A DNA stretch of 64,000 nucleotides from Escherichia coli 042 (GTDB taxonomy: Bacteria > Pseudomonadota > Gammaproteobacteria > Enterobacterales > Enterobacteriaceae): NCBI RefSeq assembly GCF_000027125.1, contig NC_017626.1; one strand, given 5' to 3'. The translations under genes were made by a program, and so were the position numbers. Under the pieces are notes generated by a model that searched no databases, was not told the origin of the DNA, and saw nothing but the letters and a program-made list of their open reading frames with translations. Positions 11,377-21,530 of this stretch are shown here, piece after piece. The number at the start of each line of letters is the position of its first letter. Within the stretch, counting starts at the first letter, position 1.

Positions 11377-12948
11377 ATGACATCTCCATCTTCGACAGCC
11401 GGAAAGCCCTGTGTGGAATGCGGCATTCCTGATCCATGTATTTTTGATGTTATTAGTGATTTTCCAGAGGCCGGCGAGAAACATTTCTGGTCAAAAGAAG
11501 GAGTGGCGCGTTTTAAGCTACTGGATGATGGTTCCGGATGTGATGGTATAATTACCATTACCTACCAGTGCGATAAAAGTGGAACACATGAGGCATGGTT
11601 AGAGGAAGAATCAGAAAATAATCATAAGATACTGCAACCTTTCGGAATACCTAATAAGGTCACTTTGGATGATAACTTGTCTGAAGGTGAAATAATTGCT
11701 ATGGGTACATTTCGAGTACCATGGGATTATTTGGGGGCAATATCCTCTCCACTTAAGAATCATTATGAACCTGCCCATTATTCAGTCAGAATTGACAGTT
11801 GTTACGAATGTGGCAATTATGTTGAAATTGATGTTTATCCTACAGTGGAAATTAGGTTTACTACAGGGTTCAGCTATGAGATTTCGTCATCAAAACAGAC
11901 GAGAACAGTAAAAGAGCGGCGTGACGAAAGAATAAAAGCCAGGGACGCAATGGAGAACACCAAGCCCAGGGATAAAAATAAACTCCGTAGCGGCTGGACA
12001 AATACCACTGCTGAGTTTGAGTGGATAAACAAGACTTCCCTGACTGTCGATTTTGGCGTAAAAATAGCTAATGTTGAACACACAAGTGAATATGAAAAAG
12101 AGATAAAAAAACTTCGACAAACAAAGCAACTGGAACAGATAGGAAGAATTGACTCTCTGGTCAAGAATGTCAATAAATATTTTGCGCCAGATCCTGACAA
12201 TAATAATGGTACGCGCAAATATGCATTGTTCAGTGCAAAAATAGAACCCGTTAAACTGGGTATATCGTATGCCTATCAATATACCGATATCCAGGATGGC
12301 CCCTGTCATTTTTATGGTTTGTTTGGTGCCCCATTTTTTGAAGCGTCGTTCAGATTCGATATTATTTCATTTATATGTGCATATTGTAAAGTCGAGTCAT
12401 TGGTCAACAGATGTCGTGAATATCTCCGTAAAAACGGAGCCAGTGTTGAATGCTATATCGAGATTTCAGCGGAGATTAATCTTGATCTTGGCGCAGTATA
12501 CGCTGAAAAGGATAAAAAATGGGAGTTTAATGTAAAGGAAAGTAACATCAAGCTCGGTTTAAAAGGTGTGGTGAGTGCGACGTTTGAGGCGAATGTTTTT
12601 GTTGTACAACTGACCGCCGAAGCGACTGCCTCTATAGAAGCGAAAGCTGGATTTGGATTTGATTCACATGATGACGGACTGGACCTAGCATTATTTCATG
12701 ACGGCATTAAAGGGAAGTTTGAATTTAAGATTGATGTGTCTCATGGTGAAGTTGATGAAAAAGGAAAGGGGAAGGAAAAGAGCGAAAAACCTGAGAAGAA
12801 AGATACCGTTGAGTGGCAGTTATGTGATCCTATGGAGGTAAAGGATTCACCATTACGGGTTAATTTATACGGTAAAGAACGCACTGTGGAGAAAAAAGTA
12901 ACACCGCCGAAGCCAGTGACAACGTGGACGATAGGTATGGATTATTAA
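11377..12948 (+). CDS. Candidate VgrG-delivered T6SS effector, family not recognised
   Basis: 523-aa AT-rich ORF immediately after vgrG and DUF4123; Cys-rich N-terminus (CVECGIPDPC), Lys/Glu-rich C-terminus; no GxSxG or HxKxxxxD motif seen. Confidence 0.45.
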   Translation: MTSPSSTAGKPCVECGIPDPCIFDVISDFPEAGEKHFWSKEGVARFKLLDDGSGCDGIITITYQCDKSGTHEAWLEEESENNHKILQPFGIPNKVTLDDNLSEGEIIAMGTFRVPWDYLGAISSPLKNHYEPAHYSVRIDSCYECGNYVEIDVYPTVEIRFTTGFSYEISSSKQTRTVKERRDERIKARDAMENTKPRDKNKLRSGWTNTTAEFEWINKTSLTVDFGVKIANVEHTSEYEKEIKKLRQTKQLEQIGRIDSLVKNVNKYFAPDPDNNNGTRKYALFSAKIEPVKLGISYAYQYTDIQDGPCHFYGLFGAPFFEASFRFDIISFICAYCKVESLVNRCREYLRKNGASVECYIEISAEINLDLGAVYAEKDKKWEFNVKESNIKLGLKGVVSATFEANVFVVQLTAEATASIEAKAGFGFDSHDDGLDLALFHDGIKGKFEFKIDVSHGEVDEKGKGKEKSEKPEKKDTVEWQLCDPMEVKDSPLRVNLYGKERTVEKKVTPPKPVTTWTIGMDY

Positions 12949-13014
12949 GTGATATTACAGAAATTAAAAGTGAACAGTATAATGAGTATTTTCCCCTTTT
13001 GAGAGAGAATAATT

Positions 13015-14025
13015 ATGAAGGCAAAACATTTAATATCGGTTATTTTACTGTCAGGAGTTGTTATGGGAACTGGATTTTGCTCTAACGATAACCAGCAAAA
13101 AATTCGCAGTAAGTTTAATATTGAAGAGTCATATTGTGCCATTAAGACTAATGGCGTCCTCGGGTTCAGTAACCGAAGAAGTGCCTGGCGGGCAAATGGT
13201 GATTCAACCGGGGCCATATCCAGCACCAATGCCATGATGCTGATGGCGAATGGAGAAAATGAAATCAGTCTGGAGATTGGGGCATTAGGATGGTTTTCTG
13301 ACAAGCCTGCCAGTATGGAAGAACGGGGGCGTTTTTTTCCAAAAGCAGGATGCAGCCTGGATTTGGTTCGTTTTATTAAACAGGAGGAAACGCTGCTTTC
13401 TTCAATAAAAGTGACCATCAACCAGCAGGGCATACCTGAAGCCCGGCCAGACAGCGTGCATCCCGTTATCCGGAAAGAGATTTTGGCTGAGCAGGCGGAG
13501 CCAGGATTTATTGATCCAGATTATTTTGATGAAACCTATTTCCCGAAAGGGATGAAGGTGTATCAGTTCACTCAAAAAGTTACCGTGACAGGGCTTCCTG
13601 AATGGGCCTGGACGCGGGCAACCCCCTATACCGGAAGCGACGAGCAGTTACGGAAGTTAAAAGCCGCCTATACCGAAATGGCAAGCATCATCAGTAGCCG
13701 GGACAGGGCACGTCTGAAAGCTTATAACAAAGAGGCGCTGAAGGCATGGTCAGCCACAACCGGTGACTCTGAGGATGACATATTACTCTCACTCTTCTCA
13801 AAAGATAATGTGGAGGGAGGGAAAGCCAGAATGCAGCCCATCAGGTGGGACGATTATGCCGTCCGGGTTATGAATGGTGGACGTATGGTGCAGCTATATA
13901 ATAAATCGAAACCAATATATTCCCCACTGACTTACCGTTTTACAGATGAAAGTGGTGAAGAGCGTATGGGGTATTACGCTCCGGTATTTTCGCTGATTGA
14001 TGGTCAGTTTATCCCTGTTACTTGA
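13015..14025 (+). CDS. Exported protein, candidate cognate immunity protein
   Basis: 336-aa ORF with N-terminal signal peptide and a Cys after the hydrophobic core (MGTGFC); sits directly downstream of the candidate effector. Confidence 0.4.
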   Translation: MKAKHLISVILLSGVVMGTGFCSNDNQQKIRSKFNIEESYCAIKTNGVLGFSNRRSAWRANGDSTGAISSTNAMMLMANGENEISLEIGALGWFSDKPASMEERGRFFPKAGCSLDLVRFIKQEETLLSSIKVTINQQGIPEARPDSVHPVIRKEILAEQAEPGFIDPDYFDETYFPKGMKVYQFTQKVTVTGLPEWAWTRATPYTGSDEQLRKLKAAYTEMASIISSRDRARLKAYNKEALKAWSATTGDSEDDILLSLFSKDNVEGGKARMQPIRWDDYAVRVMNGGRMVQLYNKSKPIYSPLTYRFTDESGEERMGYYAPVFSLIDGQFIPVT

Positions 14026-14054
14026 TTAACCTGTTGGGCTACAAATCAGGATGT

Positions 14055-14098
14055 CCGGTAAGGTGATTATTACTGAGTTAAGCACCTTACCGTTTTTT
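14055..14098 (+). terminator. Rho-independent terminator after the effector/immunity pair
   Basis: Stem CCGGTAAGGTG / CACCTTACCG followed by TTTTTT. Confidence 0.55.
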
Positions 14099-14334
14099 AA
14101 ATTTTTTGTCGCTGATATTCCAGACAGGAAAACAATATGCCTTTAGCTGCCAGATTAAACGACAAAGGTACCGGCACAGGGAAAGATCACGTAACGCTGC
14201 TTTTTTGTACTAAATAATTCGCATTTTATGTTTAAAATTTGAGATATTCCTCATTACCTGAGGCTGTTTTTTATTACTTATACATGATCAAATACTCCTT
14301 ACATAATTAAGGGGAACAAAATGGAACTTAAAAA

Positions 14335-15262
14335 TTGATGGAACATATTTCTGTTATTCCCGATTACAGACAAGCCTGGAAAGTGGAACATAAATTGTCG
14401 GATATTCTACTGTTGACTATTTGTGCCGTTATTTCGGGTGCAGAAGGTTGGGAAGATATAGAGGATTTTGGGGAAACACATCTCGATTTTTTAAAACAAT
14501 ACGGTGATTTTGAAAATGGTATTCCTGTTCACGATACCATCGCCAGAGTTGTATCCTGTATCAGTCCTGCAAAATTTCACGAGTGCTTTATTAACTGGAT
14601 GCGAGATTGCCATACTTCAGATGATAAAGACGTCATCGCAATTGATGGAAAAACGCTCCGGCACTCTTATGACAAGAGTCGCCGCAGGGGAGCGATTCAT
14701 GTCATTAGTGCGTTCTCAACAATGCACAGCCTGGTCATCGGACAGATCAAGACGGATGAGAAATCCAATGAGATTACAGCTATCCCAGAACTTCTTAACA
14801 TGCTGGATATTAAAGGAAAAATCATCACAACTGATGCGATGGGTTGCCAGAAAGATATTGCAGAGAAGATACAAAAACAGGGCGGTGATTATTTATTCGC
14901 TGTAAAAGGAAATCAGGGGCGGCTTAATAAAGCCTTTGAGGAAAAATTCCCACTGAAAGAATTAAATAATCCAGAGCATGACAGTTACGCAATGAGTGAA
15001 AAGAGTCACGGCAGAGAAGAAATCCGTCTTCATATTGTTTGCGATGTCCCTGATGAACTTATTGATTTCACGTTTGAATGGAAAGGACTGAAGAAATTAT
15101 GCGTGGCAGTCTCCTTTCGGTCCATAATAGCAGAACAAAAGAAAGAGCCAGAAATGACGGTCAGATATTATATCAGTTCTGCTGATTTAACCGCAGAGAA
15201 GTTCGCCACAGCAATCCGAAACCACTGGCACGTGGAGAATAAGCTGCACTGGCGTCTGGACG
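14335..15262 (+). CDS. ISAs1-family transposase, exon 1 (reading frame interrupted by the group II intron)
   Basis: Near-identical to the intact copy-B transposase up to ...HWRLD; one base fewer than copy B in the A-run near the start codon region. Confidence 0.8.
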
Positions 15263-17153
15263 GTGTGCCGCAGGAACACAAGATAGCTGCATAAGGATAC
15301 GCAGTTAGCTTTTGTATAAGCTCATAAAGAGATGGTGGAAGGCCCACCGGGATCGGCTGTCGGAAGCAGATTCCAAACCACTTCATGCTGCTGTGGTAAA
15401 GAGCCATGGTAGTGAGCGATGAAGTAAAGCGTGAGTGAAAACTCAGCAGGTAAGATACTCATGAGACGAGTGAACCCGAACCCATGTTGACGCGTCGTAA
15501 ACCAGAGACTGACATCAAAACCGAAGGGGCGTCCAGCCTTCGGGATAAGTCTGCGAGTGAATTCCGAATGCTGCGCAGACGGTGTCCGGCGTAAAGTGGG
15601 CGTGACGGAGTATCAGGCTCTTCCTGGGAACTGCGGGAACCTGTCGTTGTGATGATAAGGGAGAAATGCAAGTCACTGAATTGGCGAGCATGAAAGTACC
15701 GATGCACAGCACAGGGACGGAGCCGTTCGTAGTAGTGATGAAGCTTCTGTAATGGAGGTGGAGCGAAGGGGCGGCATCAGACAGTCTTTGGACAGTGTTC
15801 AACTGAACATGTTCAGGAGGAGACAATGACAAAGACAAAAGCGTTTAACATTGATAAGTCACTGGTGGTCAGCGCGTACAGGCGAGTGAAGACCAGTGCA
15901 GGCGCGGCGGGAATTGATAAGCAATCGCTGGCGGACTTTGATAAACGGTTAGTTGATAATCTGTACAAAATCTGGAACCGACTTTCTTCAGGAAGTTATT
16001 TCCCACCGGCAGTGAAAGCGGTGGCAATTCCGAAGAAATTGGGTGGAGAGAGAATTCTGGGTATCCCGACAGTCAGCGATCGTATCGCGCAGACGGTGGT
16101 AAAACTGGCCTTTGAGCCACAGGTTGAGCCACATTTTCTGGCAGACTCTTACGGCTACAGACCGAATAAATCGGCACTGGATGCTATAGGGGTAACGCGT
16201 AAGCGTTGCTGGTATTACGACTGGGTACTGGAATTTGACATCAAAGGGCTGTTCGATAACATCCCGCACGAACTGATAATGAAAGCCGTGGACAAACACA
16301 ATCCGGCCCGGTGGGTAAAATTGTATATACAGCGGTGGCTGACAGCGCCGATGGTGATGTCAGACGGAGAAGTCAGAGCACGAACAATGGGAACGCCGCA
16401 GGGAGGTGTCATAAGTCCGTTGCTGGCAAACCTGTTCATGCATTATGTGTTTGATAAATGGCTGGCAAAATATTATCCGAAAGTGCCGTGGTATCGATAT
16501 GCTGATGATGGCATTTTGCATTGTCACAGCGAAGCAGAAGCGACTGAAATGCGAGAAGTATTACGCAAAAGATTTAGCGAATGCGGACTGGAAATGCATC
16601 CGGAGAAAACGCGAGTTATCTACTGCAAAGATGGAAGCCGGAAGGGTGATTATGAACATACCATGTTCGACTTTCTGGGGTACACATTCAGGCGACGCGT
16701 AGTAAAGAACGTTAAGCGAAACAGTCTGTTTGTAAGTTTTACCCCCGCAGCGAGCAAATCAGCGCTAAAGGCAATGCGTCGGGAAATCAAAGCGACAGGG
16801 ATAAGGAAAAGAGTGGATTTAAGCATTGAGCAGATAGCGAAATGGATAAATCCAAAACTGAATGGCTGGATAAATTATTACGGGCGATATACCTGTTCGG
16901 AATTATACAGCGTGTTCAGATATATCAATAAAGCACTGGTGAGGTGGGGGCGTAAGAAATATAAAATGCTCAGCCGATACAAGACAAGAGCCTCAAAATT
17001 TCTGGAAGAAATGGCGAAGCGAAGTCCACAGTTGTTTGCCCACTGGCGTCTGAAGATGAGAGGCGGACTTGTTTGATGGGAGCGGTATGAGCCGAGAGGT
17101 TCACGTACCGTTCTGCGAGAGGCTGCGGGGGAGGTTCCTGCGGCCTACTCACC
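15263..17153 (+). mobile_element. Group II intron, same orientation as the host transposase gene
   Basis: Exactly fills the gap between the copy-A junction CTGGACG|TGGTAATG and the uninterrupted copy B; starts GTGTG; encodes an RT/maturase; a domain V-like hairpin (GAGCCGAGAGGTTCACGTACCGTTC) lies near the 3' end. Confidence 0.8.
15826..17076 (+). CDS. Group II intron-encoded reverse transcriptase/maturase
   Basis: 416-aa ORF with RT motifs ([10 protein letters not shown], the YADD box in [12 protein letters not shown]) and a C-terminal maturase-like region. Confidence 0.9.
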
Positions 17154-17347
17154 TGGTAATGAATGAAGACGACTGCAAAATAAGAAGAGGAAATGCAGCA
17201 GAATTATTTTCAGGGATACGGCACATCGCTATTAATATTTTGACGAATGATAAGGTATTCAAGGCAGGGTTAAGACGTAAGATGCGAAAAGCAGCCATGG
17301 ACAGAAACTATCTGGCGTCAGTCCTTGCGGGGTGCGGGCTTTCGTAA
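17154..17347 (+). CDS. ISAs1-family transposase, exon 2 (C-terminal segment)
   Basis: Translation [64 protein letters not shown] matches the C-terminus of copy B. Confidence 0.75.
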
Positions 17348-17378
17348 TCTTTCCCTGGATGTGAAAAGCAGCTGCGGA

Positions 17379-18669
17379 CAGGGAAAGATCATCAGAAGTA
17401 CACTTTTTGTACTAAACAATTCGCATTTTATGTTTAAAAATTGAGATATTCCTCATTACCTGAAGCTGTTTTTTATTGCTTATACATGATCAAATACTCC
17501 TTACATAATTAAGGAGAACAAAATGGAACTTAAAAAATTGATGGAGCATATTTCTATTATCCCCGATTACAGACAAGCCTGGAAAGTGGAACATAAATTA
17601 TCGGATATTCTACTGTTGACTATTTGTGCCGTTATTTCTGGTGCAGAAGGTTGGGAAGATATAGAGGATTTTGGGGAAACACATCTCGATTTTTTGAAGC
17701 AATATGGTGATTTTGATAATGGTATTCCTGTTCACGATACCATTGCCAGAGTTGTATCCTGTATCAGTCCTGCAAAATTTCACGAGTGCTTTATTAACTG
17801 GATGCGTGACTGCCATTCTTCAGATGATAAAGACGTCATTGCAATTGATGGAAAAACGCTCCGACACTCTTATGACAAGAGTCGCCGCAGGGGAGCGATT
17901 CATGTCATTAGTGCGTTCTCAACAATGCACAGCCTGGTCATCGGACAGATCAGGACGGATGAGAAATCTAATGAGATTACAGCTATCCCTGAACTTATTA
18001 ACATGCTGGATATTAAAGGAAAAATCATCACAACTGATGCGATGGGTTGCCAGAAAGATATTGCAGAGAAGATACAAAAACAGGGAGGTGATTATTTATT
18101 CGCTGTAAAAGGAAACCAGGGGCGGCTAAATAAAGCCTTCGAGGAAAAATTTCTGCTGAAAGAATTAAATAATCCAGAGCATGACAGTTACGCAATTAGT
18201 GAAAAGAGTCACGGCAGAGAAGAAATCCGTCTTCACATTGTTTGCGATGTCCCTGATGAACTTATTGATTTCACGTTTGAATGGAAAGGTCTGAAGAAAT
18301 TATGCGTGGCAGTCTCCTTTCGGTCAATAATAGCAGAACAAAAGAAAGAGCCCCAAATGACGGTCAGATATTATATCAGTTCTGCTGATTTAACCGCAGA
18401 GAAGTTCGCCACAGCAATCCGAAACCACTGGCACGTGGAGAATAAGCTGCACTGGCGTCTGGACGTGGTAATGAATGAAGACGACTGCAAAATAAGAAGA
18501 GGAAACGCAGCAGAATTATTTTCAGGGATACGGCACATTGCTATTAATATTTTGACGAATGATAAGGTATTCAAGGCAGGGTTAAGACGTAAGATGCGAA
18601 AAGCAGCCATGGACAGAAACTACCTGGCGTCAGTCCTTGCGGGGAGCGGGCTTTCGTAATCTTGCCCTG
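17379..18669 (+). mobile_element. ISAs1-family (H-repeat) insertion sequence, copy B (intact)
   Basis: Same terminal inverted repeats as copy A; single uninterrupted transposase ORF. Confidence 0.8.
17523..18659 (+). CDS. ISAs1-family (H-repeat-associated) transposase
   Basis: 378-aa ORF; recognised H-repeat protein family. Confidence 0.9.
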
Positions 18670-18778
18670 GTACAGTAAACAAACGAAAGTTGTTATTTCA
18701 ATGGTCAGGGCAAGAGCATGAAGTGTTTACTACACACTATGCTCTTGTCCTGGAGTCAGGTCTTGTTTGGAGGGATAA

Positions 18779-19282
18779 ATGGTAGATATTGTCGAGGCCG
18801 ATAAAACGGATATTTATTTCATTCAGGAGAGTGTTTATGGCAAAATCGGGTTGCCAGCTTTTGGTAATACAATAGGACCATCCGCACAGCAAGTTGTTAA
18901 AAAGGTATTCGCTGTCGTTAAAGAACGAGATAAGACACATGCAAAACAGAGATTATTGTTGGAATATAATGGTAACAAACTCTGGATGAATGCTATTGAT
19001 GGCAGTGAAGCTATCCTACCAACAGAATTTTCTAAGCGATACGAACTTTCATTATTTAATACTACTAATTTTGGAGAAGATCCTTTTCCTGATGTTAATT
19101 TATATAATAATATGAAATCAAGTTTTTTTGTAAGGTTTGGTGGAACATCCCATCCCGAGGCTTGGGCTATTTATAATGCAAGTACGAAAGAGGTTAAATA
19201 TATAGAAACTGCAAGAGAAATTGATAAAATATTCAGTGATTTTAACTTGAGTGGTACATTGCCAATTCACATTGGTCGATGA
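18779..19282 (+). CDS. Hypothetical protein (AT-rich orphan ORF)
   Basis: 167-aa ORF in a low-GC segment between the IS copies and the IS remnant; no recognisable motif. Confidence 0.3.
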   Translation: MVDIVEADKTDIYFIQESVYGKIGLPAFGNTIGPSAQQVVKKVFAVVKERDKTHAKQRLLLEYNGNKLWMNAIDGSEAILPTEFSKRYELSLFNTTNFGEDPFPDVNLYNNMKSSFFVRFGGTSHPEAWAIYNASTKEVKYIETAREIDKIFSDFNLSGTLPIHIGR

Positions 19283-19348
19283 TTTTTTAAATTGTGTGAT
19301 TAAATAATTGAACATTAATGATGATTTATAGCATTATTATTCTATAAC

Positions 19349-19861
19349 ATGAATAAACGGATTGAATGTGTTATGTTAAAAATAAGTTTATACGTAATAA
19401 TATTGTTATTTTCCTTTCAGATTAGTGCAGCCATTACTAGCAAGGAAAGTGAGGTTGTTTCACCATTATTAATGGATGTTAATTCTTCACTAACAATGGA
19501 AAATATTTCTGAATTATCCACATCATCGGAACCATCGCAACAGGGGGTATTTCCTGTAATATGTACTCGACTTCATCCTGGCTCCGTAATGAAACGCCAG
19601 TTATTAACCGGCTGGGGGCCTGTTTTTATAATTGGTGATGATCCTTTTTCTCTGCGCTGGATGAGTGAACATCTGGAGATCCTTAAATCGCTAAATGCCC
19701 TTGGTTTGGTTGTTAATGTTGAATCAGTAGAACGAATGGAGGTATTACAGCAGCGGGCTGATGGGTTATTGTTATTGCCAGTTATCTGCGATAATTTCGT
19801 GCAAACTCTGCAATTAAATGCTTATCCGGTATTAATCACAGAGATGGAAATATCACAATGA
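19349..19861 (+). CDS. Hypothetical secreted protein; C-terminal motif resembles an integrating-conjugative-element protein family
   Basis: 170-aa ORF with N-terminal signal peptide; FIIGDD...GLVVNVESVE...YPVLIT recalled as typical of the PFL_4695-type ICE protein family (from memory, unverified). Confidence 0.35.
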   Translation: MNKRIECVMLKISLYVIILLFSFQISAAITSKESEVVSPLLMDVNSSLTMENISELSTSSEPSQQGVFPVICTRLHPGSVMKRQLLTGWGPVFIIGDDPFSLRWMSEHLEILKSLNALGLVVNVESVERMEVLQQRADGLLLLPVICDNFVQTLQLNAYPVLITEMEISQ

Positions 19862-19889
19862 TTAATAACATAATTACTGCAAATAATAT

Positions 19890-20105
19890 CGTAATTTTGA
19901 AAATGGTAATCCTGTTCACGGCACCATAATTAGAGTTATGTCTTGTATCCGTTCAGTATAATTTCACGAATGCTTTATTAACTGGATGCGAGATTGCCAT
20001 TCATCAAATGATAAAGACGTCATCGCAATTGATGGAAAAGCGCTTCCACACTCCTATGATAAAAGTGGTCGCAGGGGAGCGGGCTTTCGTAGTCTTAGCC
20101 CGACT
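19890..20105 (+). mobile_element. Internally deleted ISAs1-family remnant
   Basis: Transposase codons about 60-120 (ENGNPVHGTI...[24 protein letters not shown]) fused directly to the IS right end CGGGCTTTCGTAGTCTTAGCCCG. Confidence 0.6.
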
Positions 20106-20132
20106 CTCCCCGGCCCTAAACACAACACCCAC

Positions 20133-20912
20133 TCACCACAACCTAAACTCATCCGCATCCCGCCATGCCGGAAACTTTTCTCTATATTCCCGCAATGCCG
20201 CCATCGACAGCTCCGCATCAATGCGCGTTGCCTGATGCGCGTCGGCGGTGGCGATAATCTCGCCCTGTGGATTAATCACCCGGCTGTCACCGCGATAATG
20301 GCAGCCGTTGCCATCGCTGCCGACGCGATTGCATCCCGCCACATACGCTTGATTCTCAATCGCGCGGGCCGTCAGCAATGCCTGCCAGTGCAGAGAGCGC
20401 GGAGCCGGCCAGTTGGCGACGTACAGGGCGAGGTCGTAATCGTTGAGATTGCGCGACCACACAGGAAAACGTAAGTCGTAGCACACCAGCGGCAAAATAC
20501 GCCAGCCGCGCCATTCCACAATCACTCGCGCATTGCCCGCTTTATAATGCAGATGCTCATCTGCCATGCGGAACAGATGACGCTTATCATAAAAATGTAC
20601 CGTGCCGCCTGGCTCAACCAGCAAAAAGCGGTTAACCGAACCAGACTCCGTTTGTAATGCAACACTGCCTGCAATCAGCGCATTGCACTGCTGCGCTTTG
20701 GCTGTCATCCAGTTCACTACGTCATCTTGTGCTAGCGACGAAGCTGCCGCTTCCATGGCAAAGCCGCTGGTAAACATCTCCGGTAGAACGATCACATCGC
20801 GTCCGGTAATATCTTCCAGTTGACGATCAAAATGACGCAGGTTGGCAGGACCATCCATCCACACCAGTGGTTGCTGCAAAAGCGTAATCTTCAAACCAGG
20901 CACGGTGTACAA
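20133..20912 (-). CDS. yafV: Omega-amidase / carbon-nitrogen hydrolase family protein YafV
   Basis: 259-aa ORF recognised as E. coli YafV (nitrilase-superfamily). Confidence 0.9.
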
Positions 20913-21056
20913 CTCCTTTATGCGAAGGGTTTTATAACTTTAACACCTTATCAGGCAGTTGCCTTAGCGCAGAATAAATTGATAACAAATGCTGATATTG
21001 GAAATATCTGATTTGCAAATTATCGTGTTATCGCCAGGCTTTAGGAGGTTAATAAC

Positions 21057-21530
21057 ATGGGCAGGATAAGCTCGGGAGGAATGATGTTTAAGGCAATAAC
21101 GACAGTCGCCGCTCTGGTCATCGCCACCAGTGCAATGGCGCAGGATGATTTAACCATTAGCAGCCTTGCAAAGGGCGAAACCACCAAAGCTGCGTTTAAT
21201 CAGATGGTGCAAGGGCATAAGCTGCCTGCATGGGTGATGAAAGGCGGTACTTATACTCCCGCACAAACCGTAACGTTGGGAGATGAGACGTATCAGGTGA
21301 TGAGCGCGTGCAAACCGCATGACTGTGGCTCGCAACGTATCGCTGTGATGTGGTCCGAGAAATCTAATCAGATGACGGGGCTGTTCTCGACTATTGATGA
21401 GAAAACGTCGCAAGAGAAACTCACCTGGTTGAATGTGAACGATGCGCTTTCGATTGATGGTAAAACGGTGCTGTTCGCGGCGTTGACCGGCAGCCTGGAA
21501 AACCATCCGGATGGTTTTAATTTTAAATAA
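21057..21530 (+). CDS. ivy: Inhibitor of vertebrate lysozyme Ivy
   Basis: 157-aa ORF with signal peptide and the CKPHDCG lysozyme-inhibitory loop. Confidence 0.9.
   Translation: MGRISSGGMMFKAITTVAALVIATSAMAQDDLTISSLAKGETTKAAFNQMVQGHKLPAWVMKGGTYTPAQTVTLGDETYQVMSACKPHDCGSQRIAVMWSEKSNQMTGLFSTIDEKTSQEKLTWLNVNDALSIDGKTVLFAALTGSLENHPDGFNFK

Follow-up and report, generated by a model that had tools for sequence, protein, structure and literature searches.

What is the repeated DNA that lies between the type VI secretion system (T6SS) island and the gene yafV in Escherichia coli 042, and what has it done to the island next to it? The DNA in question occupies positions 14177-20105 of the window, i.e., of the whole stretch of 64,000 nucleotides from contig NC_017626.1 that was analyzed and to which all of the coordinates refer. 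An original prediction described the interval as a recombination hot spot that contains two direct copies of an ISAs1-family insertion sequence (IS) and a deleted third one. Taken as a whole, the best explanation, which we consider very likely to be correct, is that ISAs1-family (ISEc1 / H-repeat) elements have accumulated here as in a graveyard, at the point where the aspV T6SS/Rhs island has its distal edge. One of the elements in this graveyard carries a group II intron.

Two insertion sequences and an intron

A repeat search found direct repeats that are spaced 3,202/3,203 bp and 1,312 bp apart, as well as a third copy of 201 bp at 19881-20081. A 1.3-kb repeat with 96% identity is far above chance, and the two spacings are unequal because the first copy (copy A) is interrupted. 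Copy A and copy B are both on the + strand in direct orientation, with termini of the form CAGGGAAAGATCA.../...TCTT(T/G)CCCTG, and a spacer of 21 bp separates them; the claim that two direct ISAs1 copies lie about 20 bp apart is correct. When the interruption is removed from copy A, the two are 96.05% identical, and among the 51 differences is a divergent patch at IS positions 13-26. The longest stretch without any A/B difference covers IS positions 976-1126. In the window, copy B has a C at 18354, where all nine of the other genomes with the same arrangement that were compared base by base have a G; because of this C, IS position 976 looked diagnostic for A versus B and is not.

Copy B (17379..18669, + strand, 1,291 bp) has an intact open reading frame (ORF) for a 378-aa transposase at 17523-18659. 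The predicted protein matches the family model NCBIfam NF033564 with 413.9 bits (cutoff 70) as well as the Pfam families DDE_Tnp_1_assoc and DDE_Tnp_1. Members of the ISAs1 family, as ISfinder describes them, are 1.2-1.5 kb in size and have imperfect terminal inverted repeats that begin with CAGGG. Both copies have these properties, because copy B is 1,291 bp and copy A 1,290 bp without its intron, and the ends of copy A (CAGGGAAAGATCAC... and ...TAATCTTTCCCTG) form an imperfect inverted repeat in which 19/24 positions match.

Copy A (14177..17357, + strand), as delimited by its termini and its alignment to copy B, is 3,181 bp long instead of the expected ~1.3 kb because a 1,891-nt intron splits its transposase gene. 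The two transposase exons are at 14338-15262 and 17154-17347. Once spliced, they would give an ORF that is open over 372 aa, starts with MEHIS and is collinear with the transposase of copy B. One base is deleted from an A-run where the ORF begins; this closes the MELKKL start that copy B uses, and the start in copy A is six codons downstream of the one in copy B.

The DNA that splits copy A is a group II intron of bacterial class D, which we assign to E.c.I2 (15263..17153, + strand, 1,891 nt); it has the same orientation as the transposase gene. This intron is the largest single feature of the interval, and it was overlooked when the two ISAs1 copies were predicted. Its boundaries were set against the uninterrupted copy B (...CTGGACG|TGGTAATG...), and its 5' end reads GTGTG. 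Two Rfam models are matched over their full length, namely group-II-D1D4-2 (RF01999; 105.5 bits, gathering threshold 36) at 15334-15451 and Intron_gpII (RF00029, domains V/VI; 58.3 bits, gathering threshold 40) at 17078-17153. Accordingly, the 5' GUGYG, the domain I-IV core and domains V and VI by which a group II ribozyme is recognized are all present.

An intron-encoded protein (IEP) of 416 aa, with reverse transcriptase (RT) and maturase (X) domains, is encoded at 15826..17076 (+ strand). Its ORF lies between the domain I-IV match and the domain V match, which is the place of an RT/maturase encoded in domain IV. The IEP matches Pfam RVT_1 (E=1.5e-39) and GIIM (E=7.3e-16) and the NCBIfam equivalog TIGR04416 (412 bits, cutoff 300), and its translation contains a YADD motif. 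In RefSeq, the gene is annotated as ltrA and has an ISAs1 pseudogene half on either side. No Pfam HNH or other endonuclease (En) family was found in the IEP at E<=0.01 and the protein ends 28 residues past the maturase match, in agreement with E.c.I2, whose IEP has no endonuclease.

How the intron would recognize its exons is suggested by a candidate exon-binding site 1 (EBS1; CGTCCAG, 15530..15536, + strand) in a hairpin loop of intron domain I, where it is flanked by the stem CCGAAGG/CCTTCGG. All of its nucleotides (7/7) can form Watson-Crick pairs with the end of the 5' exon (CTGGACG, 15256-15262), i.e., with the intron-binding site 1 (IBS1). The exon join at 15262/17154 has the predicted ligated sequence ...CTGGACGTGGTAATG... 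Since the intron is sense-oriented and looks intact, splicing should restore the 372-aa transposase frame.

The name of the intron comes from a survey in which E.c.I2 is a class D intron that targets specifically "Rsh IS (= ISEc1-5)" and in which the name is given at >90% nucleotide identity to the E.c.I2 reference (Leclercq & Cordaux 2012, PMC3522654). E.c.I2-1, a single copy in UMN026 (NC_011751, 269264-271154), is 1,891 bp long, 99% identical to the reference and located "in a Rhs region" (PMC3522654). A 100% match to the window intron lies at 269263-271153 in strain 118UI, in the same gene context. A literature search for a group II intron together with "H-rpt" gave no match.

Could the tandem copies be an artefact of assembly, that is, a duplicated or mis-joined repeat, which was the outcome that would have undone the original prediction? 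Among 5,426 complete E. coli genomes, 172 have the intron at >=99% identity, 173 have the left-flank cassette at >=99% and 168 have the whole 8.5-kb arrangement (13000-21500) at >=99%. An arrangement found in 168 independent complete genomes is therefore not an assembly artefact. Nor would one expect an assembly duplication to produce copies that differ by 4% and by a 1.9-kb intron, and we give this explanation practically no chance.

The distribution of the intron also bears on its mobility. The IEP gene occurs in 174 places in the 172 genomes, and the two genomes with two copies belong to the related strains M7424 and M11957. The second intron copy of M11957 is 100% identical and occupies the same ...CTGGACG|TGGTAATG... 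site in a different ISAs1 copy (97% identical to A), by a Tox-PAAR-like gene at another T6SS-cargo locus (CP061337.1 1183644-1194894 reversed, L013 3351-6532). It is present only in M11957 and M7424 and not in M00057, and copy B of M7424 was also checked as a possible location and does not contain it. The second copy looks like the product of a recent retrohoming event, and E.c.I2 therefore appears to be still mobile in nature. The 2012 survey, which had one genome, found no evidence of retrohoming for E.c.I2 (PMC3522654).

Presumably, E.c.I2 uses RNA-DNA pairing (EBS1/IBS1) to recognize CTGGACG|T within the transposase gene, inserts by reverse splicing and is then reverse transcribed by the RT/maturase that it encodes, which has no endonuclease domain. 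Its mobility would use replication-fork priming, by analogy with RmInt1 and other class D introns that lack this domain. Copy B holds an empty, sequence-perfect E.c.I2 homing site in the same orientation, between 18465 and 18466, and the site string occurs once in the window, at 18452. Neither the window nor any of the tandem-pair genomes inspected has an intron at this site, despite its location only 1.3 kb downstream of the intron, and low intron activity would be the ordinary explanation.

Recombination between the two copies

Direct repeats that are 96% identical would be expected to recombine with each other. Non-crossovers would leave gene-conversion tracts, and a crossover at equivalent points of A and B would leave one hybrid IS after the loss of 3.2 kb that include the intron, the rest of A, the spacer and the beginning of B. 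The original prediction regarded close direct repeats as substrates for deletion, and public genomes bear this out. To find the crossover product, the query consisted of 600 bp of left flank, an A/B hybrid IS and 300 bp of right flank, of which parental genomes could cover <=77%. Exactly two genomes covered it 100%, those of strains 300444 (GCF_052907805.1) and GF60 (GCF_044324875.1). Both have the usual flanking genes and one IS of 1,290 bp, whose left part is of type A and whose right part is of type B.

The hybrid of 300444 has A markers through IS position 974 and B markers from 1127, and its right flank is one site off that of an intact-pair genome (L018). The GF60 hybrid has A markers through 857, B markers from 911 and also at the isolated sites 167 and 431, and its right flank is of a different haplotype. 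The simplest reading of these patterns is two independent crossover deletions. The intervals in which the two hybrids switch might have hinted at intron-stimulated breaks if the crossovers had clustered at the intron site. This idea was rejected, as GF60 switches within 858-910 and 300444 within 975-1126; the 300444 interval near the intron site carries no weight, since it is simply the longest block of perfect A/B identity.

One might instead regard the single hybrid IS as ancestral, with the tandem pair derived from it, or as A and B collapsed into one by an assembler. In favor of such a view, the hybrid is seen in two genomes only, the 300444 record is a chromosome-level whole-genome shotgun record and assemblers may collapse repeats. 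An ancestral hybrid, however, would require the in-register insertion of the 3' end of A, the intron, the spacer and a 5' part of B that differs from A at ~45 sites, and a collapse would also have to drop 1.9 kb of unique intron sequence. In addition, the two hybrids differ in both their switch interval and their flank haplotype, and the 300444 flank is nearly that of an intact pair. Therefore, we think that an ancestral or collapsed hybrid is unlikely and that the two strains would have lost the interval by crossing over.

The second expected product of recombination, gene conversion, is suggested by the differences between strains. Most of the differences inside A and B fall on A/B-diagnostic sites, where they change to the base of the other copy in runs. 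For example, four consecutive sites in copy A of M7424/M11957 have become B type and six in copy B of 118UI have become A type. This pattern is the signature of gene conversion between the copies.

The island edge and its cargo

The original prediction correctly placed the interval at an island edge; the locus is the distal edge of a T6SS island inserted at aspV. In an annotated twin genome, the gene order is tRNA-Asp (aspV), a full T6SS core cluster, Hcp, a truncated VgrG, DUF4123, hypothetical proteins of 523 aa and 320 aa, the IS copies and then yafV, ivy and fadE. The first core-genome gene past the island edge is yafV (20133..20912, - strand), encoding a 2-oxoglutaramate amidase according to its Pfam CN_hydrolase match and the RefSeq annotation.

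The ISAs1 remnant (19884..20105, + strand) ends shortly before yafV, 28 bp from the stop codon at 20133. In it, IS positions 323-519 continue directly into the last ~30 bp of the IS right end, and the fusion point is the 8-bp repeat GGGGAGCG (20074-20081). Thus, the predicted third remnant before the 3' end of yafV is there, but it is more than internally deleted, because local alignment to copy B shows that IS positions 1-322 are missing as well. The two parts of the remnant have different affinities. The right-end piece and the yafV flank are contiguous and 98% identical with the full-length yafV-adjacent ISAs1 right ends in CUWW10 and 55989. The inner 197-bp piece (323-519) is only 82-85% identical to every ISAs1 copy examined. 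The remnant would derive from an ancestral ISAs1 next to yafV, and microhomology may have joined this element to a diverged member of the family.

An ancestral element at this site is also suggested by other lineages. The right end of the yafV-adjacent ISAs1 is kept here and in every inspected lineage with an ISEc1-type copy, i.e., CUWW10, 55989, ST95-32 and K-12. The K-12 yafF pseudogene is another truncation at the same site; it comprises IS positions 1001-1280, is 98.9% identical to copy B and lies 40 bp from yafV. These observations would imply that an ancestral ISAs1 was located ~30-40 bp from the end of yafV and that this lineage has two more copies head to tail upstream of it.

The 21-bp spacer between A and B (GATGTGAAAAGCAGCTGCGGA, 17358..17378, + strand) is itself an ISAs1 fragment. 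Together with the CAG that follows it, at the start of copy B, it exactly matches the inside of an ISAs1 allele at the orthologous locus of ST95-32 (L002 6903), 56 bp from the right end of that allele; the corresponding segment of A and B is 83% identical to the spacer. Because the match to an ISAs1 interior is exact, the spacer is a sliver of a further ISAs1 copy. Strain 55989 (NC_011748.1, L004 4802-7293) has a head-to-tail pair of ISAs1-family elements at the same locus, in which an ISEc26-like copy that kept ~1,205 of its 1,304 bp abuts the precise left end of an ISEc1-like copy; the latter retains the ancestral yafV junction.

Since only 21 bp separate the end of A from the start of B, the pair might be viewed as an active (IS)2-type transposition intermediate or as a composite transposon. 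Yet the spacer is IS-internal sequence and not a short junction, the copies are 4% diverged with nothing between them to mobilize, and the arrangement is stable at one site in 168 genomes. No A-spacer-B unit with target duplications was seen at other genomic sites in any of the searches. An intermediate or a composite element is very improbable.

Some further relics were noticed in CUWW10 (NZ_CP182145.1, L003 5934-6108), which belongs to a T6SS-depleted lineage. Here, 14 bp of an ISAs1 left end are followed by an intron 5' fragment of ~170 bp and then by a complete ISAs1 by yafV. The intron fragment is 86% identical to the window intron, and its insertion point, IS position 14/15, coincides with the divergent patch at 13-26 between A and B. 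Presumably, the fragment is from the intron E.c.I9, and fragments of this type probably account for the ~2,000 genomes that have partial intron matches of 80-90%.

On the left side of copy A, the tiny ORF at 14137 was thought to be cut off by an IS that had landed in a gene. The ORF is indeed the start of a gene, as the first 12 codons (MPLAARLNDKGT, 14137..14172, + strand) are identical in DNA to the start of the T6SS PAAR gene WP_001127502 in strain 'clone D i14' (L006 9717-10001). The homology ends after ...GGTACC, and four further bases, GGCA (14173-14176), lie between this break and the IS end. A tblastn search of the 64-kb window found no other part of the PAAR protein. In ST73-type strains, the PAAR gene follows a homologous effector cassette (82.5% identical) at another locus, and a VgrG gene comes next.

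A simple insertion would also be expected to leave a target-site duplication, and the original prediction suggested looking for one. Duplications of 8-10 bp were sought around six IS copies (A, B, the second copy of M11957, and those of CUWW10, O157 and 55989), and none was found at any of them. The missing duplications bear on the history of the copies and not on their family membership. With the gene truncated, DNA missing and no target-site duplication, the PAAR gene was therefore cut by an event that also removed DNA and not by a simple IS landing. The precise IS termini, the lack of duplications, the beheaded PAAR gene and the IS-internal spacer together show that earlier IS-associated deletions shaped the junctions, and these deletions probably removed a PAAR-VgrG cargo module. 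We infer both the order and the mechanism of the ancient deletions.

One such mechanism would be transposase-mediated adjacent deletion from precise IS ends (intramolecular transposition), which, in place of homologous recombination between repeats, may have produced most of the junctions, including the PAAR break at the left end of A and the spacer, and which is compatible with present-day recombination between A and B. Every IS terminus is precise (CAGGG.../...CCCTG) and none has a target-site duplication. Moreover, the sequence at the left end of the resident IS varies by lineage, being a PAAR gene, an ISEc1 interior, an ISEc26 interior at ~1205/1304 (55989) or an E.c.I9 fragment (CUWW10). 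Against this mechanism, transposition of H-repeat/ISEc1 elements has been reported as never observed (PMC3032704), the extra GGCA lies between the PAAR break and the IS end, and recombination between IS copies with different flanks also erases target-site duplications, so that it too would fit the precise ends without duplications. We regard adjacent deletion as the main source of the junctions as a possibility to be taken seriously, although not one on which we would rely.

A more speculative idea is that ISAs1-family elements have a preference for resident members of their own family, to whose 3' interior they attach their precise left end, either by self-targeted insertion or by adjacent deletion. 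We consider this rather unlikely. If true, such joining would build head-to-tail arrays at the edges of T6SS/Rhs islands and trim cargo as a by-product, and the 21-bp spacer and the ISEc26(1-1205)|ISEc1 junction of 55989 would be two relics of left-end joining.

The cargo to the left of the fixed IS/yafV junction differs from lineage to lineage. It is of the DUF4123 type in the window, DUF2169/PAAR-like in ST95-32 and Rhs/YdcD in 55989 and O157, and there is almost nothing in CUWW10. Such lineage-specific cargo next to a fixed junction would indirectly support the exchange of cargo at this site.

Several findings weigh against the overall interpretation or limit how far it reaches. First, a crossover between A and B takes out only IS and intron DNA and no T6SS cargo genes. 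Thus, this deletion does not explain the loss of cargo, as had been proposed; that part of the original prediction draws indirect support from the PAAR truncation and from the variation of cargo across lineages. Second, of the ~174 genomes that have this haplotype, only 2 show the deletion; the pair is thus rather stable, and the term 'hot spot' is relative. Third, the hybrid IS and the conversion tracts come from public assemblies, in which repeat collapse or short-read polishing could mimic both. Fourth, transposition of H-repeats is reported as never observed, as cited above, and both splicing and transposase activity are predictions from sequence. Finally, the identification of the intron as E.c.I2 is strong but indirect, as it comes from the published UMN026 coordinates and length and not from a direct alignment, and a search of the intron for the EBS2/IBS2 pairing gave only weak G-U-rich candidates, none of them convincing.

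The neighborhood of the IS copies has some additional features. The stretch between copy B and the remnant (18670-19883) is non-IS DNA that contains an ORF for a 167-aa hypothetical protein (18779-19282, + strand) and a gene for a DUF2859 / PFL_4695-family protein of integrating conjugative elements (ICEs) (19349-19861, + strand; Pfam PF11072, E=2e-28; NCBIfam TIGR03765, 120.6 bits). The latter is an orphan, with no further ICE genes nearby. This pair of genes, stranded between IS copies near yafV, is also present in ST95-32.

The same is true of a 47-bp palindrome at 18706..18752 (inverted repeat I3, not assigned to a strand), a perfect-looking hairpin that resembles a miniature ISAs1-family relic. 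It has the appearance of a miniature ISEc26-type element, in which the left and right terminal repeats are 5 nt apart. Its arms match the ISEc26 ends of the O157 strain F8797 at 16/17 positions on the left and 13/15 on the right.

To the left of the IS copies, the window has ORFs of 523 aa and 336 aa (annotated as 320 aa) at 11377-14025, downstream of DUF4123 and without a Pfam match. By their position, they look like a T6SS effector/immunity pair. The 82.5%-identical cassette of the ST73 strains is at the yncG-yddH (K-12 RhsE) locus, within a PAAR-VgrG-DUF4123 array whose end is likewise an ISAs1 fragment.

Some members of the lineage have acquired more insertion sequences. For example, there is an IS1 in or near copy B in one genome (L011 7716-8413) and an IS1 in the left-flank cassette of B1.H1.1 (H66), and IS3-family elements are present in the left flank of another (L015, 191-1419) and within the intron match of SCU-105 (H1). 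IS traffic at the locus is ongoing.

Relation to known elements

Overall, the original prediction described the repeats correctly but incompletely, and its interpretation holds in part. The meaning of these findings beyond annotation is small. The two copies can be relabeled as an intron-bearing IS and a neighboring intron-free copy, and the beheaded PAAR gene documents that a T6SS cargo module was lost where an IS ends. Direct examples of A/B crossover deletion and gene conversion are available in public genomes, and one might use the locus as a natural reporter of recombination between diverged repeats or of the mobility of a class D intron in E. coli.

The closest relatives of the IS copies are the H-repeats (H-rpt)/ISEc1 of the Rhs loci, including the 'min 5' remnant in K-12 yafF. 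They have in common the family, the size of 1,291 bp, the location at the distal end of vgrG/rhs arrays and the chromosomal site. In the E. coli W genome paper, b0215-b0221 are an Rhs ("rearrangement hot spot") region (PMC3032704). In contrast to these H-repeats, the lineage described here has two extra full-length copies arranged head to tail, one of them with an intron, and its cargo is a DUF4123-type effector module with no rhs gene.

The intron has no structural difference from the catalogued E.c.I2 (Zimmerly-lab nomenclature; UMN026), with which it shares the length, a syntenic coordinate (~269.26-271.15 kb), the host IS and class D. What differs is the sampling, since the 2012 survey had E.c.I2 in one genome and it is now found in 172 of 5,426 genomes, two strains of which have the second copy. 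The related class D intron E.c.I9 has its host in the same IS family, and in other lineages (CUWW10) it is found at this locus. It is absent from the window, is ~86% identical to the window intron and inserts at IS position 14/15 instead of 1086/1087. This agrees with the report that E.c.I9 targets the same IS 'at another position', with BL21-type fragments at ~242.5 kb (PMC3522654).

Outside of E. coli, E.c.I2 is similar in its size, IEP and location in an IS transposase gene to RmInt1, and it differs from it in the host IS family, the bacterium and the target. RmInt1 of Sinorhizobium meliloti is ~1.9 kb, encodes an IEP of ~420 aa without En and has a sense-oriented homing site in the transposase gene of ISRm2011-2. 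The mobility of RmInt1 and its replication-fork priming have been shown experimentally; for E.c.I2, mobility is suggested by the comparison of genomes. In conclusion, all of the components of the locus belong to described families, and an H-repeat/ISEc1 element that contains E.c.I2 and lies where a T6SS/Rhs array ends is already published and annotated.

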